Source: Calditrichaceae bacterium
Lineage (GTDB): Bacteria > Calditrichota > Calditrichia > Calditrichales > JBFXGD01
Length of the DNA: 64,000 nucleotides
Assembly (NCBI GenBank): GCA_050173015.1
Contig: JBFXLE010000002.1
Coordinates: 1-64,000, forward strand
Direction: 5' to 3'
The notes below the pieces were generated by a model that made no database searches, was not told the origin of the DNA, and saw only the letters and a program-made list of their open reading frames with translations. This document shows, piece by piece, positions 970 through 10,234 of the stretch (its first letter is position 1; the number at the start of each line of letters is the position of its first letter). The translations under genes were made by a program, and so were the position numbers.

Positions 970-1750
970 TCGCCATCGAATTACCTCCTTTTGTTTTGTT
1001 GTTAGCCTTTAAGGGTCGTTTCTTTTGTGATTGTTCCAGACGATAACTTCCAATATTGAGTTCCAGGATAATGCTGTGATGAACCAGTCGGTCTATAGCT
1101 GCGGCGGTTGTCATGGGGTCCTTGAAAATTACTTCCCACTTTGAAAAAGGCAGATTACTGGTTATCATTATACTGGCGCGTTCATAGCGATCAGCCAGAA
1201 GGGTAAAAAGAACCTCCATCTCTTCCCGGCTCTGTTGTACATAGCCAATGTCATCGATTATAATCGCATCATATTTAGCAAGACGTTTCAGGTATTGTGG
1301 CAGTTTTAAATCCCGTTTGGCCACCAGCATTTCCTGCACCAGAAGATTGCAGGGCCGAAACAGCATTCTGCGTTCTTTGAAAATCAGTTCCTGAGTCAGG
1401 GCACACAACAGATGTGTTTTACCGCTTCCCGGATTCCCGAAAGCAAGAATATTCTCCGAACGATCCAGAAAGGTGCCGTCCAGGAGTACCCCTATCTGAG
1501 CATTAACCCTTTGAGGTAACCGCTTGCGGTTAAAAGACGCCAGGGTCTTTTCTAAGGGTAATCCGGATTCTCTCAGGAATCTGTCAATACGTTTCTCACG
1601 GCGCATTTGGCATTCATACTCAATGAGATTCAGTAAATACTGTTCGTAACTGTAAGACTCCGTTCTGGCAACATCAGACTGTTCTTTATAACAGGCACGT
1701 ATCGCCGGCAGATGCAGCTCCCGCAGACTGTTTTGAATCAGTTTTTCCAT
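962..1750 (-). CDS. istB: IS21 helper ATPase IstB
   Basis: Walker A GNPGSGKT, Walker B IIIDDIGY, TSNLPFSKW, AAIDRLVHH. Confidence 0.96.
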   Translation of the reverse strand: MEKLIQNSLRELHLPAIRACYKEQSDVARTESYSYEQYLLNLIEYECQMRREKRIDRFLRESGLPLEKTLASFNRKRLPQRVNAQIGVLLDGTFLDRSENILAFGNPGSGKTHLLCALTQELIFKERRMLFRPCNLLVQEMLVAKRDLKLPQYLKRLAKYDAIIIDDIGYVQQSREEMEVLFTLLADRYERASIMITSNLPFSKWEVIFKDPMTTAAAIDRLVHHSIILELNIGSYRLEQSQKKRPLKANNKTKGGNSMAKE

Positions 1751-3216
1751 CAGGCCACTCCTTCGACAAGCAGGCGGTCATAGATACGGATATCTACCGT
1801 ATCCACCTCAACAGCTTCTTTAATCGCATACTCCTGATTATGGTGAATCAGCTCTGATACTCTCTCGAAGCTGACAGGACGGTTCTCATGGATCAAAAGA
1901 GCAAGAGCCTGGTCTACTTTCGTTTCACTTTCTTTAGCGGCCAGATGCAGTATTTTGAGATATTCTTTGTTATTACGCTTTAAGCTGTCATAGGCCATAC
2001 GGAAACAGTGGCTGGGGAAAAGATCCCGATGGTAACGATAGTTGGCAAAGGCTCCCGGTTTGCGAACCAGCCAGTCAATAATATGACGATACTGAATATG
2101 ATGTTTTTCTTCTCCGCGCAAACGGGGGATCTTCTCCATACAGCGCTGACCATACCAGACTTCTAAATACTCAGCATACAGGCGAATCCGGACGGTTTCC
2201 CCGATCAGCCGGCTATCCACCGAATACACATTATGGGCAATACGGATCGTCGATGAGGGCCCCACTTTCAGAGGAAAACGTTTACAGGAATCGTAGCGGG
2301 TATCCGGAAGACGCCTTAACTGTTTCAACTCTTCATTAAGTCGTTCCCAGCGGCCGGCATTGAGTTGTGAGAACAGTTTTTCCAGGAAAGTTGTATATTC
2401 TTTACGGTTGTCAAAATCACGGCTGCTGCGCAGTAAAAGAGCCTGATCGAGAGCCTTCTTAAAACGGTAATGACGTTGTTCAATGTCGCCATTCTCATTG
2501 GGTTTAGCTGTTTGTATCTTATGAGCATCGAGTTTATAGTGTCGCATCAGGGCCTCATAACGACGCGTAAAATGCCGCCTTTTTTCTTTATGATTATTTG
2601 GAACCGCTGCGCTCATCCGGTCTGTACGATGGCTCCTGGGTACACCGCCTAATTTCCATAAGGCGCTTTGCAGGCCATCACTTAACGATTCAAAGCTTTC
2701 TGAGAAACAGATACTTCCTGCTTCCCAGTTTGAATACGTCAAAACAAAATGAAAAACAAGATGATTAAACGGTGCACCGCAAATAGTTATACCCAATGAA
2801 TTCATACAGGTAAAATCAGACTGGCACAGCTCACCGGCTTTATGGAGCTGAGGGAAAAAAACTTCCTTTGGCGGACCTTCCTGAACGCGCCAAATCTTAA
2901 TACGACGTTGTAGGGTTCTGAGTTGTCCATCGCAAAATTTACCGGGATAGCTGCGTTGCAGATAGTCAAAAATAGTTTTTGCTTCCAGGCCTGAATTCGT
3001 CTCTAATTTCTCTTTGATTTCCGGCCATACATCTGCAAAGGCATCTTCTCTGGTACGCCAGCCGTGCTCTGTTTTCACATCACAGGGTAATTTGCCAAGT
3101 CTTAAATACTTGCGAGCCGTTTTTTCATCCATGCCCGCTTTTGCAGCAGCAACTGCTACTGTTTTTTCTGATTTAATTGCTGTCATTAATATCCTCACTT
3201 GATTTTCTGTAACCAT
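1750..3216 (-). CDS. istA: IS21 transposase IstA
   Basis: N-terminal HTH (KTARKYL), CQSDFT, HRTDRM, NENGDIEQ, YSVDSRLIG. One-base overlap with istB. Confidence 0.95.
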   Translation of the reverse strand: MVTENQVRILMTAIKSEKTVAVAAAKAGMDEKTARKYLRLGKLPCDVKTEHGWRTREDAFADVWPEIKEKLETNSGLEAKTIFDYLQRSYPGKFCDGQLRTLQRRIKIWRVQEGPPKEVFFPQLHKAGELCQSDFTCMNSLGITICGAPFNHLVFHFVLTYSNWEAGSICFSESFESLSDGLQSALWKLGGVPRSHRTDRMSAAVPNNHKEKRRHFTRRYEALMRHYKLDAHKIQTAKPNENGDIEQRHYRFKKALDQALLLRSSRDFDNRKEYTTFLEKLFSQLNAGRWERLNEELKQLRRLPDTRYDSCKRFPLKVGPSSTIRIAHNVYSVDSRLIGETVRIRLYAEYLEVWYGQRCMEKIPRLRGEEKHHIQYRHIIDWLVRKPGAFANYRYHRDLFPSHCFRMAYDSLKRNNKEYLKILHLAAKESETKVDQALALLIHENRPVSFERVSELIHHNQEYAIKEAVEVDTVDIRIYDRLLVEGVA

Positions 3217-3321: not shown

Positions 3322-3802
3322 GAGTCGATTTAACCTGATACTGATATTCAACTATGTATTGTGCATATGATCCGCAATTCCGTACGTTTTGTTTCTTGGA
3401 AAGACCGTAAAAAAATCACTGCCGATCTAAAAAATATTTATAAGGCAGCGACCGAGGAAGAAGCTAAAATGCAGCTTGATAAATTTGCCCAAATATGGGA
3501 TAAGCAGTATCCGTCCATCAGCAAATCCTGGTATGAAAACTGGGAGAATTTAAAAACCTTTTATGATTTTCCGGAATATATTCGAAAGGTGATTTATACG
3601 ACTAAATACCATTGAATCGATAAATATGAGAGTGCGGAAAGTAACAAAAACAAGAGCCTCAGTTCAAAATGACAAAGCCGCTTATAAAATGCTTTATCTG
3701 GCAGTGCAGAATATTTCAAAAAAATGGAGCATGCCTATCAGAAACTGGAACCAGGCTATTAATCAATTTGCGCTGAAGTATGGAGATCGCGTAAATTTGT
3801 GA
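3322..3802 (+). pseudogene. IS256-family transposase, 3' part (nonsense codon and frameshift)
   Basis: Reads ESI*PDTDIQLCIVHMIRNS...RKVIYTT. A +1 shift near 3605 continues as TIESIN..RKVTKTR...KKWSMPIRNW to TGA at 3800-3802. Confidence 0.9.
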
Positions 3803-3935
3803 ACCAAACAAAAGGAATTTACACAAAATTATTTATGGGCTCTTTAAAGTTGGCAAGTTAACAAAATATTCATAGTATTAAATTTGTCCGAAAATTCCAG
3901 AAGGCTCTGAGGCAGAACAAAAACTATAATTTTTC

Positions 3936-3964
3936 TTGCATTCTCTTTTTAGACTCTTTATACT
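3936..3964 (+). promoter_or_regulatory. sigma70-type promoter upstream of the DUF1573-like gene
   Basis: TTGCAT-N17-TATACT. Confidence 0.6.
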
Positions 3965-4018
3965 AATTACAGCATTGATTTCAATCTGTTTTTAATTCGT
4001 AGCTACTCCTATCTCAGC

Positions 4019-4483
4019 ATGGGGACGAAAATGAAGTATAAAATTTTATTTATATCTCTTACTATTTTATCTCTTGAGATTATATTTATTACAAATTGTG
4101 GAATATATTATAACGTTCATGGCCCACAAATATCTTTTATGGAAGAATCTTATGATTTTGGAAATTTAGCGATCAATTCTAAGGCCTACCATAGATTTAG
4201 TTTTATAAATACTGGTAATGACACACTGAAAATTTTTCGAATAAATGATACCTGAGGTTGCACAGCAACAGTCCTGAGTTCAGGCGAAGTTATTCCAGGA
4301 AACAAAGGCGATATTATTATAACACTTTTTACTGGAAATAAAGTTGGGAAAATATTTAAAACAATAGAAGTTTTTACTAATGATTTAAAAAATAGCCCAA
4401 CTATACTAAATGTATCAGCTTCTATCATTCAAAGTAATGCGCAGGCAGCGAATGATTCTTTATTAAATTTAGATAACAGGTAA
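4019..4483 (+). CDS. DUF1573-like exported protein with in-frame TGA (candidate selenoprotein, U-G-C motif)
   Basis: YDFG...F.F.NTGNDTLKI...T[TGA]GCTATV...IPG.KG.I...K.IEVFTND is continuous through TGA 4253-4255 to TAA 4481-4483. Hydrophobic N-terminus. Confidence 0.8.
4271..4285 (+). promoter_or_regulatory. Putative bacterial SECIS hairpin
   Basis: G-T-CCTG-AGTT-CAGG-C: 4-bp stem plus bulged U and a closing G-C pair, with G at loop position 2. 21 nt separate the UGA from the loop. Confidence 0.55.
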
Positions 4484-4719
4484 TCAGAGAGTTTAAATAA
4501 TATAGTATTATTAATGTTTAAGTTTGTAAATTACGTTTTGCAGAATATTCACTTTTTTTGTTTTTAAAGTACACTCAAAAAAATCTGAATATCAATTATA
4601 ACAATTTGTATTCACTGCGATTTAAATATTCGATGTACACAGGCCTTAATATCATTAGTTAATTATAAAATGGCAATATATATGAATTGTTATAATTGAT
4701 TAGGAATTAGGAGAATAAA

Positions 4720-5703
4720 ATGCGAAAAATAATTTATTACATCAGTTCACTTAAGATTTTATTTTTCTCTTCGTTTTTACTTATCATTAGTTGTGTGGAC
4801 TCCCCAGAATCCTTGTCACCTCTTGGGGTTGAGAATGTAATTCCTGTAGGTTCGGCCTCTTGGAATATAGGTGTTAGAGAATACATATTTGATAAATCAG
4901 GGGTGAATAATGAACTAAAAGTCTTACACGTGAATGAAACTTATAACGCATCTATAAAATTCGAAACAAATGAAGCTGAAGTGACTAAAGTATTGTATCA
5001 TGACAAAAATAAATATTTAAAATTTTCGTTTGATCAAAAAAATAATCTTTTCTGTTTTACTGATAATAATGATGAAACAATTACTTTCCACTTCAATGGA
5101 GAAAAATGGATTTCGGATGGATGTGACTTAGACGAAGCTTTAGATGTCATTAAAAATAATCGAATGGAAATAATGCTAATGGCTGGCTCTGTAGCGGATT
5201 TTAAAATGTATGAGTACCTGCAAAAGAATAATAGCCATAAAGATATCGGCGCCAATGGTGGTGAAATACGCAAAACTGCTTATTTCTGTGACTATACCAC
5301 TGAACTTAAGGGTGACGCCCAAGGGCTTAGTAGAACCTCTGCGTGTTGGGATGCAACTAATAATGTAAATGATAATTGTTTTAATTCTGTATGCAACGGT
5401 TGTTGTGATTACCAGTCCTATGATTGTGATTGTATTTGTATCCCTTACCTCGGTGATTTTCTTTGTTCCTGCACTATAATTGGATTTCCTTGTGTGGAGG
5501 AACCCATTGATCCACCTCCCCCTCTTGGGGATGGTGAATGTACTGGTTCATGTTATATATGTACAACATGTGAGTATATTTATGATTCTGCAAACGGGGA
5601 TCCCGAGAATGGTATCATTCAAGGCACTGTTTTTAGTGATCTTCCGGATGATTGGAATTGTCCTATTTGTGGTGCCAGCAAAGATTCTTTTTATGAATAT
5701 TAA
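4720..5703 (+). CDS. Cys-rich lipoprotein with C-terminal rubredoxin domain
   Basis: RBS AGGAG and lipobox-like LIISC. A 12-Cys segment, a PPPP linker, then [41 protein letters not shown]. Confidence 0.85.
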
Positions 5704-6084
5704 TAGAAAACAAACTGATTATTTCTTTAGCTCTGTATAAGTGATAATATGCGCATTGAGACAAGCAATGAATAAGTGTTTAAATATATTAGTTTCAATA
5801 AATTGCCAAGTAAACTGATAACAAAACTCTGTCAGGAATCTTTGCAAATGTTTTGGCATACAGCATGTTGAACACCTTTGATTATTCCTTTCACATCACT
5901 AATCATAATGTGAATCAAAGCCTATATTTAAGTTATCCTTGGATTATTATTTTTAATGAATTGAAGAGAGAATATTTCCTGATTAAGCTATATATAAGAT
6001 TTATATCTTTAAATTATATATGACTACTTTGAGTGATGAATAGGCGATATCACTTTTAACGATTATCAAACATACAAACCGGAA

Positions 6085-6381
6085 ATGATTTCGGTCTATG
6101 AGATACCGATTCCTCAGGCCATGAATCCTGCTCTGAGAAGCAGTATTATGTCTTTGGTGAGTCATATTTCGACGGATAGTATGATCGTCCGATTTGAAAC
6201 GGTATATAAAGATAAACCTTATGCCATAGTGTATTTCGTTAATGGAAAAGTAAAAGAAAGCGGTTTATTCAGTTTATTAACCGCGGATACATTAACAGTG
6301 CATTATTCGAATGGTAAAACCGGTCAGAAGCTAAACCCGTTCAGATTCCCGGAAAAGGGGGCGATTGTTACAGAGAACTAA
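6085..6381 (+). CDS. Hypothetical protein, probably a 5'-truncated remnant
   Basis: The frame is open upstream to about 6040 with no RBS, and begins where the AT-rich islet ends. Confidence 0.4.
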   Translation: MISVYEIPIPQAMNPALRSSIMSLVSHISTDSMIVRFETVYKDKPYAIVYFVNGKVKESGLFSLLTADTLTVHYSNGKTGQKLNPFRFPEKGAIVTEN

Positions 6382-6607
6382 TAAAATGTTTTTAGATTAG
6401 ATAGATTAGTAGATGGCCGGACAGGATTGATTAAGGATTAAAAATATGAAACTTCGCTCCCGGCCACCTGCTATTTTTTTGAAAATCCGGCTGAACAACT
6501 AATAATACCGTCTTAGAATATTGAAACAAAATTATTAACCGCCTGTTAAGCCATACCTCGAAAACCTCCGTTTCAAAATATCGTCCTCCCATTTATTTAA
6601 AATTCTC

Positions 6608-6653
6608 TTGAAAAAAGCAATCTTTATTATTATATTTCGCCATATAACGAAAT
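6608..6653 (+). promoter_or_regulatory. ars promoter with putative ArsR operator
   Basis: TTGAAA-N17-TATATT (6608-6636) overlapped by ATTTCG-N8-CGAAAT (6634-6653). Confidence 0.75.
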
Positions 6654-6662
6654 GGAGTATTT

Positions 6663-7007
6663 ATGAGAGAGATTGTCAAAACTTTTAAAGCCTTATCAGA
6701 CAGCAACAGGATACGTATATTAAAAATGCTGGAGGTAAGACCGCTTTGTGTATGTGAAATAACCTCGGTCCTTCAACTGGCGGCATCCACGGTCTCAAAA
6801 CACTTATCAATCCTACGGGACGCGGAATTTATAATAGATGAAAAAGAAGGTAAGTGGGTGAATTATTATTTAAACACCCATCAGACAAATGAATATATCC
6901 GTCATTTACTGCCGTTGATCCGCACATGGCTGCCGGATGAACTTATGGTAAAAAATGATCAAAACAAAGTAAAAATAGTTAACAGAAACGATCTCTGCGG
7001 TATCTGA
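6663..7007 (+). CDS. arsR: ArsR/SmtB metalloregulator
   Basis: FKALSD.NRIRIL, LCVCEI, STVSKHL..LR, EGKWVNY. Confidence 0.93.
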   Translation: MREIVKTFKALSDSNRIRILKMLEVRPLCVCEITSVLQLAASTVSKHLSILRDAEFIIDEKEGKWVNYYLNTHQTNEYIRHLLPLIRTWLPDELMVKNDQNKVKIVNRNDLCGI

Positions 7008-7019
7008 TGATGATATGTC

Positions 7020-7039
7020 ATTTCGGGATCAAACGAAAT
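7020..7039. promoter_or_regulatory. Second copy of the putative ArsR operator
   Basis: ATTTCG-N8-CGAAAT, same arms and spacing as 6634-6653. Confidence 0.65.
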
Positions 7040-7058
7040 ATTAAAAAATGGATTTAAT

Positions 7059-8360
7059 ATGAGCTGGAAAGATGAATATAAAAACTTACTCTGGATTCTG
7101 GGTTTTTTTCTGTTGGCTTATCTGATGCCGGTGAATGATCCTGTCTTTAGGACAGCGGTTAATTCATCCTTAGAATTAAGTAAATGGTATGCGCAGGAAC
7201 ATGTTTTATTATGTCTTGTCCCCGCATTTTTTATCGCCGGCGTTATAGCGGTTTTTATAAGTCAGGCCGCGGTTATAAAGTATTTCGGCGCCAATGCTAA
7301 AAAATGGGTCTCATATGCGGTCGCATCTGTTTCGGGAACCATTTTAGCGGTCTGTTCATGCACGATTCTGCCGTTATTTTCGGGTATTCATAAACGAGGC
7401 GCGGGTCTGGGACCGGCTATTGCTTTTCTTTATTCAGGTCCCGCTATCAATATCCTGGCAATCATTCTCACGGCCCGTATACTGGGTTTGGAACTTGGTA
7501 TCGCGCGAGTTGTGGGTGCTGTTGTCTTTTCTGTTGTAATCGGTTTGTGTATGCATTTTATCTATAGAAAAGAGGAAGCGGCAAAGGCCGATGCTCAGAT
7601 GGCGATGCCGGAACCCGAAGAAGCCCGGCCCTTATGGCAAACTTCTTTTCATTTCTTTGTATTAGTACTTATTCTTGTATTCGCAAACTGGGGTAAACCG
7701 GATACCACCTCTGGGATCTGGTATAATTTGTATCACTTTAAATGGATGATAACTTCCTTTTTTGGAATACTCTTAGGCATATCGTTGATATATATCTTAA
7801 AATTAAATAAATGGTATGTTATCACCGGGATGGCCCTGACTTTTGTGTCCTATATTCTCATACCGGATAATCCGCTGATCCCATTTATTGTCGGTATTGT
7901 GTCCCTTAGTGTGATCATTTCTGTCGTGCCGGGCGAATCTCAGGAATGGATGTCGGAGACCTGGGGATTTACCAAACAGATTTTACCACTGCTTGCCGCG
8001 GGTGTGGTGGTGGCGGGTTTTCTGCTTGGTTCACAAACAGGCGGCGCGGGAATCATCCCGAACGAATGGATATCCGGATTTGTCGGGGGTAATTCACTCA
8101 GTGCCAATTTTTTTGCTTCGATTGTGGGTGCATTTATGTATTTTGCCACTTTAACCGAAGTTCCGATTTTACAGGGACTTATCCAGGCCGGAATGGGCAA
8201 AGGACCGGCATTGGCTCTGCTGTTGGCCGGACCGGCGCTTTCGCTGCCGAATATGCTTGTTATTCGCGGGGTCATCGGAACACAAAAAACTCTGGTTTAC
8301 ACCGGACTGGTGGTAGTCATGGCTACTATCAGCGGGATGTTGTACGGTAGCCTGATGTAA
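7059..8360 (+). CDS. DUF318/ArsP-family permease
   Basis: Multi-TM, with AVCSCTILPLF, AFLYSGPAIN, YFATLTEVP, LLAGPALSLP. Confidence 0.85.
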   Translation: MSWKDEYKNLLWILGFFLLAYLMPVNDPVFRTAVNSSLELSKWYAQEHVLLCLVPAFFIAGVIAVFISQAAVIKYFGANAKKWVSYAVASVSGTILAVCSCTILPLFSGIHKRGAGLGPAIAFLYSGPAINILAIILTARILGLELGIARVVGAVVFSVVIGLCMHFIYRKEEAAKADAQMAMPEPEEARPLWQTSFHFFVLVLILVFANWGKPDTTSGIWYNLYHFKWMITSFFGILLGISLIYILKLNKWYVITGMALTFVSYILIPDNPLIPFIVGIVSLSVIISVVPGESQEWMSETWGFTKQILPLLAAGVVVAGFLLGSQTGGAGIIPNEWISGFVGGNSLSANFFASIVGAFMYFATLTEVPILQGLIQAGMGKGPALALLLAGPALSLPNMLVIRGVIGTQKTLVYTGLVVVMATISGMLYGSLM

Positions 8361-8405
8361 ATCCGGCAGACAACATCCGTTGAATACGATAGGAGTATAA
8401 ATTTA

Positions 8406-8816
8406 ATGCGTATCTTGATTCTTTGTACCGGGAATTCCTGCCGCAGTCAAATGGCGGAAGGTTTTCTTAAATCCTTTGATCCCGCGCTTGAAGTGCATTC
8501 CGCGGGTACAAATCCCTCGGAGCGGATTCACCCCAAGGCCGTTCAGGTGATGAATGAAATCGGTATTGATATCAGCAAAAACATTCCAAAAAATGTGGAT
8601 CAGTTTATTGAAAAATCTTTTGATTATGTGATCACGGTGTGTGATCATGCCAGGGAAACCTGCCCGGTGTTTATGGGGAAGGTGAAACATCGTCTGCATA
8701 TCGGGTTTGACGACCCGGCCGAAGCTGCAGGCAGTGAAGATGAGATCCTGAATGTGTTTCGCCGTGTACGCGATGAAATAGAAGGTGATTTTTTAAAATT
8801 TTATAATAATATATGA
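8406..8816 (+). CDS. arsC: Thioredoxin-dependent arsenate reductase (LMW-PTP fold)
   Basis: LCTGNSCRSQMAEG, VITVCD, CPVF, FDDPA. Confidence 0.93.
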   Translation: MRILILCTGNSCRSQMAEGFLKSFDPALEVHSAGTNPSERIHPKAVQVMNEIGIDISKNIPKNVDQFIEKSFDYVITVCDHARETCPVFMGKVKHRLHIGFDDPAEAAGSEDEILNVFRRVRDEIEGDFLKFYNNI

Positions 8817-8895
8817 GTGAATCAAAGAAAAGCAAACGGGAATAAAATCACATTGAACCCCCCTGCTTTTCCAGTAAATTGAAGGGAGAATTGTC

Positions 8896-9141
8896 ATGTT
8901 AAATATTAAGGTTGTCGGCAGCGGATGTCCGAGTTGTCAAAAATTAGAAGCATTGTGCCGTGAGATTGTCGCGGAGAAAAATGTTGTCGCGGAGATTGAA
9001 AAAATTACCGATGTCAATCAATTCGCTAATCTGGGAATCATGATGACACCCGGGCTGTTGCTAAACAATAAAGTGGTCAGCAGCGGTAAAATTCCGCTAA
9101 AATCGACGCTCGAACACTGGATCATTGAAGCTGAAGGTTAA
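8896..9141 (+). CDS. Small thioredoxin-like redox protein (MTH895/ArsE-like)
   Basis: [23 protein letters not shown]. Confidence 0.88.
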
Positions 9142-9169
9142 TTTGCAACTTAATAATCGGAGAATAGAT

Positions 9170-10234
9170 ATGTCATCCGTGACCCGTCGATTGTCTTTTC
9201 TGGACCGTTTTTTAACACTCTGGATTTTTCTGGCCATGTTTATTGGTGTTTTTTCGGGTTATTTGTTCCCGGGAATAGTGGATTTCTGGAGTATGTTTCA
9301 GGTCGGGACAACCAATATTCCGATTGCCATTGGATTAATTCTAATGATGTATCCGCCATTGGCCAAGGTTAAATACGAAGAACTCGGCGATGTATTCAAA
9401 AACATCAAAATTCTTGGTCTTTCGTTAATACAGAATTGGATCATCGGACCGGTGCTTATGTTTGCCTTGGCGGTTCTTTTCTTAAGCGATCAGCCTCATT
9501 ATATGGCCGGGTTGATCATGATAGGCCTGGCAAGGTGTATCGCGATGGTTATCGTCTGGAATGAGCTGGCCAAGGGGGATTCTGAATACGCCGCCGGTTT
9601 GGTCGCGCTGAACTCGGTATTCCAGGTGCTGTTTTTTTCCGTTTACGCGTATATATTTTTAACGGTGCTGCCGGATTGGCTTGGGCTGCAAACATTTTCT
9701 GTCAATGTAACCATTGGTCAGATCGCCGAAAGCGTTTTTATATATCTGGGCATCCCGTTTATTGCCGGAATTATCACCCGTTTCACAATGCTGAGAATTA
9801 AGGGAAAAGACTGGTACGAACAAAAGTTTATTCCGAAAATCAGTCCAATCACTCTGATCGCGTTATTATTTACCATTATTGTCATGTTTTCCCTCAAGGG
9901 GGAATTTATTGTCAAAATTCCTTTTGATGTCATACGAATTGCGATACCGCTTGTGTTTTATTTTGTGATCATGTTTCTGGTCTCCTTTTATCTCGGGAAA
10001 AAAGCGGGCGCGGATTATTCCAAAACTGCCACGCTCTCATTTACGGCGGCAAGCAATAATTTTGAGCTGGCGATCGCGGTCGCCGTTGCCGTATTCGGCA
10101 TCAATTCCGGTGAAGCCTTCGCCGCGGTAATCGGACCTTTGGTCGAGGTACCCGTGCTAATAGGTCTGGTCAATGTAGCGTTGTGGTTTCAAAAAAGATA
10201 CTTTGGTTCAGAATTAGACACGGAAAAAGTATAG
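9170..10234 (+). CDS. acr3: ACR3-family arsenite efflux transporter
   Basis: [49 protein letters not shown]. Start set at the ATG after GGAG. Confidence 0.95.

Follow-up and report, generated by a model that had tools for sequence, protein, structure and literature searches.

The stretch of DNA analyzed here (the window) is 64,000 nt long and comprises positions 1 to 64,000 of contig JBFXLE010000002.1 in the genome assembly of a Calditrichaceae bacterium (GCA_050173015.1). On its plus strand lies a gene for a protein with a DUF1573 domain, and this gene is crossed by one in-frame TGA codon. Under translation table 11, the open reading frame (ORF) at positions 4019-4255 is closed by that TGA at 4253-4255, and the same frame then runs on through 75 sense codons to a TAA at 4481-4483 (Table 1). 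In the original prediction, which was made from the sequence alone, the TGA was read as selenocysteine (Sec), inserted in response to a hairpin of the selenocysteine insertion sequence (SECIS) type directly downstream. On the basis of the comparisons reported below, we estimate a probability of about 80% that this is a still working selenoprotein gene.

Gene and reading frame

The prediction that the frame stays open past the TGA was borne out by our ORF check: only 23 of 20,000 mononucleotide shuffles of positions 4256-4480 are free of stop codons. The read-through protein matches the Pfam family DUF1573 (PF07610) with 68.5 bits against a cut-off of 26.1, and the match extends across the TGA, from residue 38 to residue 135 and over profile positions 1-97 of 98. 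The residues around the Sec are ...INDT-U-GCTATVLSSGEVIPGNK. An alternative to the start at ATG 4019 is ATG 4031, which may be the true start. The public gene call for the locus (P0001 in the representative library) is a 74-amino-acid (aa) product that runs from 4031 to the TGA; public gene calling thus halts at the UGA of this locus.

The good sigma70 promoter that had been placed at 3936-3964 found no support. The site, which matches the consensus at 8 of 12 positions by eye, was not listed by a consensus scan, and the 6 sites counted compare with 7.3 expected in shuffles. For this DNA, one sequencing run of the DNA type was listed, perhaps the source sample, whose contigs gave no cover, and no run of the RNA type. 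A scan for terminators near the gene found none, promoter and terminator counts being at chance level, and a search of positions 3800-4800 against Rfam at a permissive threshold returned chance-level matches only (E of at least 1.3).

Table 1. Coordinates of the features discussed in the text, in window numbering
Feature	Position	Strand	Description
DUF1573 selenoprotein gene (predicted), full frame	4019..4483	+	154 aa from ATG 4019, or 150 aa from ATG 4031
N-terminal hydrophobic segment	4031..4093	+	Putative signal peptide or membrane anchor; helix at residues 2-21 in the model; hydrophobic N-termini in relatives
In-frame TGA, read as Sec (predicted)	4253..4255	+	U79 from ATG 4019, U75 from ATG 4031; first residue of U-G-C-T; based on the TGA column in relatives and the Sec machinery
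Small hairpin GTTGC-ACA-GCAAC	4257..4269	+	Weak RNAalifold helix across the family, columns 5-9 with 13-17
SECIS apical hairpin (predicted)	4271..4286	+	Stem GUCCUG/CAGGCG, loop AGUU at 4277-4280
CAGGA, rival partner of UCCUG (4272-4276)	4296..4300	+	Minimum-free-energy fold of the 48 nt after the TGA
AT-rich islet	3803..6045		29-35% GC, compared with 41.9% for the genome; holds the selenoprotein and rubredoxin genes
IS256-family (Mutator) transposase gene, split	130-858 and 3361-3802		3' part further broken by stops
IS21-type element inside the IS256 gene	istB 962-1750, istA 1750-3216	-	
Lipoprotein-rubredoxin gene	4720..5703	+	327 aa; lipoprotein-type N-terminus, Cys-rich middle, C-terminal rubredoxin (PF00301, 71.7 bits, residues 279-324)
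98-codon ORF	6085-6381		3' remnant of a 643-aa 4Fe-4S (Fer4_5) gene that is intact in same-genus genome G001 (90% amino acid identity); right edge of the islet
Arsenic-resistance operon arsR-arsP-arsC-acr3	6663-10234	+	arsR with HTH_5, ArsP-type permease, ArsC of low-molecular-weight-phosphatase type, Acr3 (SBF family)

The TGA column in relatives

We queried 40 related genomes with the read-through protein, followed by 86 genomes of the phylum (record titles: Calditrichota). The phylum search gave 39 matches at E ≤ 1e-8 in 38 of the 86 genomes, and 34 of the 39 contain one in-frame TGA. We checked the column in 31 TGA genes from 30 genomes, a set that does not include the TGA-bearing matches in genomes G041, G046, and G048. 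The TGA is the first residue of a U-G-C-T/A motif in all 31 genes, and the column is invariant in the 30-row alignment. A second copy of the family in the window's own genome (C4:133524-133898) also has a TGA at this column. Two relatives from the phylum, L018 (genome G002) and L040 (genome G017), carry Cys there. Homologs in which TGA and Cys alternate at one column, with conservation continuing after it, were hence found as the original prediction had anticipated.

Outside the phylum the Cys form is common. At E ≤ 0.001 the library yields 12,223 matching proteins; among the best 150 of these matches CGC is present in 144, and CGCT occurs 234 times. These matches and the Cys residues of L018 and L040 confirm that the TGA falls on the first Cys of the CGCT motif. 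Because identity between the TGA genes and the window protein is only 21-39%, the TGA goes back to the ancestor of the clade and did not arise by a recent nonsense mutation.

Selenocysteine machinery and genetic code

The genes selA, selB, selC, and selD are all present in the window's genome (4.34 Mb in 54 contigs, 41.9% GC). We found selA at 447.7 bits, a SelB wing domain inside a 639-aa frame, one copy of tRNA-Sec with anticodon tca (ARAGORN), and two selD genes, at G000:C2:247845-248780 (minus strand) and G000:C27:38679-39602. One of the two selD genes has an in-frame TGA (motif GU) that is followed by a hairpin of -17.2 kcal/mol, and it is therefore a selenoprotein form of SelD; the frame that holds the other is open over 738 aa, a length suggestive of a fusion. 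As TGA ends 447 of the 1,772 ORFs of at least 300 aa in this genome, a reassigned code is not the explanation for the open frame.

In the same genome, ARAGORN also reported a 97-nt tRNA-like gene (G000:C10:92485-92581) with a four-base anticodon (acca) and no assigned identity.

The SECIS element across the family

Starting from the TGA, 45 nt align without gaps in the 31 genes. Fifteen nucleotides after the TGA, the family has a hairpin with a 6-bp stem (columns 19-24 paired with columns 29-34) and an invariant AGUU loop. Standard pairs occupy 98.3% of 180 cells, compared with 32.8-50.6% when the 3' partner columns are slid by 1-3 positions. The pair 21-32 covaries (U-A in 22 rows, C-G in 7, and U-G in 1) and is the only stem pair to do so, because the other columns hardly vary. 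Neither the paired fraction nor the covariation score of the alignment was attained in any of 500 shuffles, a control that is inflated by the relatedness of the rows. Within the hairpin, the synonymous sites of the Leu and Ser codons (CTG, AGT, and TCA) are invariant across the 31 genes, which points to constraint at the RNA level. The hairpin is absent from the two Cys forms, L018 and L040.

In a collection of 185,579 species, the combined pattern of UGA, spacer, and hairpin was found in 32 stretches, 30 of which have titles that begin with Calditrich or name Caldithrix. The remaining two records (L062 and L076) are titled Caldisericaceae and Deferribacteres; they could be mislabelled bins or cases of transfer. 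In the window's genome, the exact loop motif, CTGAGTTCAG, is present at 8 sites, and a TGA stands at the right distance only for the two DUF1573 genes. We also considered CTGAGTTCAG as a general SelB motif of the genome and rejected it, since 6 of the 8 sites have no TGA at that distance.

Like the bacterial SECIS of Escherichia coli fdhF and of the bSECISearch model, the family element is a hairpin within the coding sequence at a fixed short distance after the UGA; here, 15 nt separate the UGA from the stem and 21 nt separate it from the loop, and again as in both of these, a G is among the first two loop bases. It is unlike them in that the stem is a perfect 6-bp helix that carries a 4-nt AGUU loop and has no bulged U. 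It is also unlike the SECIS of the same genome's selD, which has another stem and a GGU loop.

In the window, the hairpin is made up of GTCCTG (4271-4276), AGTT (4277-4280), and CAGGC (4281-4285), with 21 nt from the TGA to the loop. The original prediction had this sequence, these positions, and this spacing right, but the bulged-U form in which it drew the hairpin is specific to the window copy, the family stem having no bulge. The 48-nt stretch 3' of the TGA has a folding energy typical of shuffled sequence (z = -0.11; 81 of 200 shuffles at least as stable), and therefore the significance of the hairpin rests on the comparison with relatives, not on thermodynamics. On this comparison, UGA 4253-4255 would be decoded by SelB and Sec-tRNA(UCA), guided by the hairpin at 4271-4286.

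A smaller stem that had been pointed out beside the UGA, GTTGC-ACA-GCAAC, is indeed there, but in all likelihood it merely follows from the G-C-T-A codons and has no function of its own, because the codons for Gly-Cys-Thr-Ala-Ala fix most of the pairing bases and because the helix begins 1 nt after the UGA; a helix starting there lies inside the ribosome while the UGA is being decoded. We therefore rejected this mostly codon-driven pairing as a second SECIS element.

Alternative explanations

Two alternatives would do without selenocysteine. If the genome read TGA as an ordinary amino acid, as in codes like translation tables 4 or 25, the frame would simply be open. We raise this only because such codes leave the frame open, and we found no support for it: TGA terminates a quarter of the long ORFs (see above), tRNA-Sec is the sole UGA-reading tRNA that ARAGORN found, and the homologous column is occupied by Cys, the usual counterpart of Sec. 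The chance that such a code is in use is very small. We give just as little credence to a plain pseudogene, that is, a Cys-form DUF1573 gene with a TGY-to-TGA nonsense mutation, or an assembly error. An origin of this kind would fit a single in-frame stop that falls on a Cys codon, one base away from TGC or TGT, in a gene that sits among insertion sequence (IS) remnants. However, TGA is the original state in the clade, where a conserved hairpin lies 3' of each TGA in 31 genes from 30 genomes, and the window copy has the clade-specific CCUGAGUUCAGG element, whereas the Cys forms are without CCUGAGUUCAGG.

A third alternative accepts the selenoprotein ancestry of the gene and holds that the window copy is a decaying extra copy, in which the SECIS has weakened and translation mostly stops at the UGA to give a 74-78-aa fragment, while the C-terminal half coasts toward a pseudogene. 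Several observations agree with decay and weigh against a working gene. Among the 31 rows, only that of the window copy has two cells that do not pair, G.G at 19-34 and U.C at 20-33, so that both basal pairs of the stem are broken in this copy only. By eye, the underlying changes are one synonymous GGA-to-GGC and one conservative Leu-to-Val, the pattern expected if constraint at the RNA level alone were lost. A competing fold exists, in which UCCUG pairs with the CAGGA farther downstream, and the probability of the apical pairs in a 60-nt context is 0.025 for the window copy, compared with 0.99 for the paralog in its own genome (L007). We built a covariance model from the other 30 elements, leaving the window out; the window element reached 33.7 bits (E = 5e-12) and a Cys form 13.7 bits, whereas three members of the training set compared with them scored 58.1-66.7 bits, about twice as much as the window element. 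By these comparisons, the SECIS of the window copy is the weakest in the family. The tree does not resolve where the window copy belongs, and its terminal branch (3.01, compared with a median of 0.92) exceeds that of every other Sec form. The gene lies in a mobile AT-rich islet by IS remnants, and a canonical copy is kept in the same genome. Finally, we found no relative closer to the window copy, of the kind that could show selection on the variant stem, in the phylum genomes, in the word-indexed library at near length, in the representative library, or in metagenome contigs; the metagenome scan for close relatives gave a single locus, which encodes a Cys form (45% identity over 71 residues), and no second variant SECIS.

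Decay is harder to reconcile with other features of the gene. The 75 codons downstream of the TGA are open despite a GC content of only 28.5%, as very few shuffled sequences are. Of the 21 columns with at least 90% conservation in the other 29 rows, the window protein retains 19, and of the 12 among them that lie downstream of the UGC, it retains 10. The two columns it misses are a Leu-to-Val and an Ile-to-Val change, and the count is within the range of other members (14-20 of 20-21 columns kept). The four apical pairs of the stem and the loop are exactly those of the family consensus, and the apical part of a SECIS is the part that SelB binds in the E. coli and Moorella systems. Moreover, the two changed bases can pair with one another (G4271 with C4285), across a bulged U4272, and this fold reaches -4.7 kcal/mol alone, compared with -5.5 kcal/mol for the stem of the paralog. 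One other member of the family, L043, likewise has one mismatched basal pair. We regard decay as unlikely, though as the alternative that deserves to be taken seriously, and we favor a still working selenoprotein gene. The window copy is a second, fast-evolving, AT-rich paralog of a phylum-conserved gene.

Relation to known selenoproteins

The original prediction overstated the novelty of this selenoprotein by calling it hidden. DUF1573 with the motif UGC is on published selenoprotein lists, and an NCBIfam model exists, so that the window gene belongs to a known selenoprotein family and not to a new one. With the window protein, the model, NF041425 (OS_HP2 family (seleno)protein), aligns over positions 2-97 of 98 and scores 61.2-61.3 bits; the paralog scores 77.9 bits, and both values lie below the curated cut-off of 100 bits. 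Each of the 30 aligned relatives is also matched (best E = 1.5e-25). By the bit scores of these two proteins, the Calditrichota clade is outside the threshold of the curated NF041425 subfamily. OS_HP2 was predicted in 2007, and the table of that study gives it two Sec members and 0 Cys homologs (Table 2, PMC1976440). The selenoprotein lists of two reviews, from 2022 and 2026, include a DUF1573 selenoprotein with the motif UGC (PMC9312934, PMC13188914), and both reviews cite Zhang & Gladyshev 2007. From the NCBIfam match and the order of the table rows, we infer that OS_HP2 is the row that these reviews call DUF1573.

With the OS_HP2/NF041425 family, the genes studied here share the DUF1573 domain, a Sec at the first Cys of CGC (giving UGC), and a SECIS shortly after the UGA. 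They differ from it in falling below the curated cut-off, in being phylum-wide, in having an invariant loop of their own, and in having a second, divergent paralog. The Cys-form DUF1573 proteins (PF07610), to which no function is assigned, share with them the domain and a CGCT at the same column, but have Cys for Sec and no hairpin, and the best matches among them contain 2 to 8 domain repeats at 26-37% identity. In the library searched, nothing turned up on the Calditrichota DUF1573 clade or on a link to MsrB. We see novelty in three respects: a clade that spans the phylum and whose SECIS hardly varies; a second paralog that is mobile and divergent and has a weakened stem; and, in the neighboring MsrB genes, a modest clue to function.

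The genes of this family are likely to be truncated in databases, because the gene call stops at the UGA and because the NF041425 cut-off misses the clade, as far as the two scored proteins tell. The window copy offers a natural variant for gauging what portion of the SECIS stem is required by SelB in this lineage.

Protein fold, export, and possible chemistry

The full frame would encode an exported single-domain DUF1573 protein with Sec in place of the first Cys of C-G-C-T. This agrees with the 154-aa exported protein with a UxC motif that had been predicted. In an AlphaFold2 model built with the 30-row alignment (mean predicted local distance difference test [pLDDT] score, 90.9), an N-terminal helix is followed by eight strands, and the N-termini are hydrophobic in all 30 aligned relatives, most of them ending in A-Q. 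By eye, a lipobox-like ITNC in the N-terminus of the window protein is imperfect.

The best Foldseek matches of the model are ASH/PapD-like domains (3qbt_F, 2e6j, 2qsv, VesB, and VesC; E = 1e-7 to 2e-6), and a search of PDB by sequence gave no relevant solved relative. As modeled, the DUF1573 selenoprotein has the fold of an ASH/PapD-like immunoglobulin (Ig) beta-sandwich. The fold is shared with ASH/PapD-like/MSP Ig-like domains, namely those of OCRL1 (3qbt), HYDIN (2e6j), a Porphyromonas gingivalis protein (2qsv), and the C-terminal domains of Vibrio VesB and VesC, at query-normalized TM-scores of 0.49-0.60. The likeness ends there: identity is 11-21%, and the titles of the listed entries mention neither redox proteins nor selenoproteins. 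Thioredoxin-like folds are found in most selenoproteins, and an Ig-like scaffold is thus unusual.

In the model, Sec 75 (numbered from ATG 4031) and Cys 77 are placed at the junction of a loop and the strand formed by residues 77-81. These two residues, U and C, are two apart and in most of the 30 relatives are the sole Cys or Sec outside the N-terminal segment. Because of this arrangement, we hypothesize that the pair forms a reversible selenylsulfide, which may serve as a thiol/selenol redox shuttle in the cell envelope; alternatively, the pair may form a site for a soft metal or metalloid. Clues for experiments are the Ig-like fold with apparent export, U and C as the sole redox-active residues of most mature domains, and an exported MsrB that is repeatedly encoded next to the gene.

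Genomic setting of the window copy

The AT-rich islet that holds the gene is about 2.2 kb long, with IS remnants on its left and a truncated gene on its right (Table 1), and it was not found in G001, a genome of the same genus. G001 matches the window only over 6046-8335, with 82-87% identity, and its DNA further upstream has no match in the window's genome. Because this match starts at 6046 and because G001 has the intact 643-aa gene, the islet (about 3803-6045) is a strain-specific replacement that lies next to IS remnants. On this view of the locus, the islet that carries the divergent paralog would have come in by a mobile-element-associated rearrangement.

The other gene of the islet encodes the lipoprotein-rubredoxin, and its product may be a partner of the window selenoprotein. 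An exported rubredoxin would be unusual. A word-based protein search at near length found no relative of similar length to this 327-aa protein.

The ars genes begin 2.2 kb downstream of the selenoprotein gene, on the same strand. In G001, the matched part of the operon (arsR and arsP, to the contig end) adjoins the intact 643-aa 4Fe-4S gene, and the islet was not found; the adjacency of the selenoprotein gene to the ars operon is therefore secondary. At the window locus, we rejected the selenoprotein gene as an accessory of the ars operon, given the islet's absence from the G001 matches and the truncated gene that stands in between.

MsrB next to canonical copies

In 10 of the 32 loci, the canonical DUF1573 gene is followed directly, on the same strand, by a gene for MsrB (SelR; loci L013, L015, L022, L023, L025, L026, L030, L032, L033, and L035). 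The 10 loci come from four genera of one family and hence are not independent, contig edges cut off some of the remaining loci, and the window copy itself does not adjoin an MsrB gene. In the window's own genome, an MsrB gene is located at C4:129268-129609, 3.9 kb upstream of the canonical paralog and on the same strand. The neighboring MsrB proteins have a hydrophobic N-terminus, a catalytic Cys in RYCINS, two CxxC pairs, and an invariant GSGWPSF with Ser and no Cys. Many MsrBs carry a resolving Cys at the position of this Ser.

Because an exported MsrB is adjacent and has Ser at the usual position of the resolving Cys, our favored guess for the canonical clade is that the selenoprotein would act as a reductant for the repair of methionine sulfoxide in the envelope. 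A more far-reaching proposal, which we put forward as a long shot, is that the exported Ig-fold U-G-C protein is the dedicated envelope reductant of a signal-peptide-bearing MsrB without a resolving Cys, in a periplasmic relay, and that the window paralog and its lipoprotein-rubredoxin neighbor form a mobile two-gene redox module whose target has shifted to a different substrate or a metalloid. If true, this would be a selenium-dependent relay for periplasmic methionine sulfoxide repair on a scaffold that is not thioredoxin-like. On the other side of the canonical genes, a gene for a MatE transporter is located upstream in 8 of the 32 loci.

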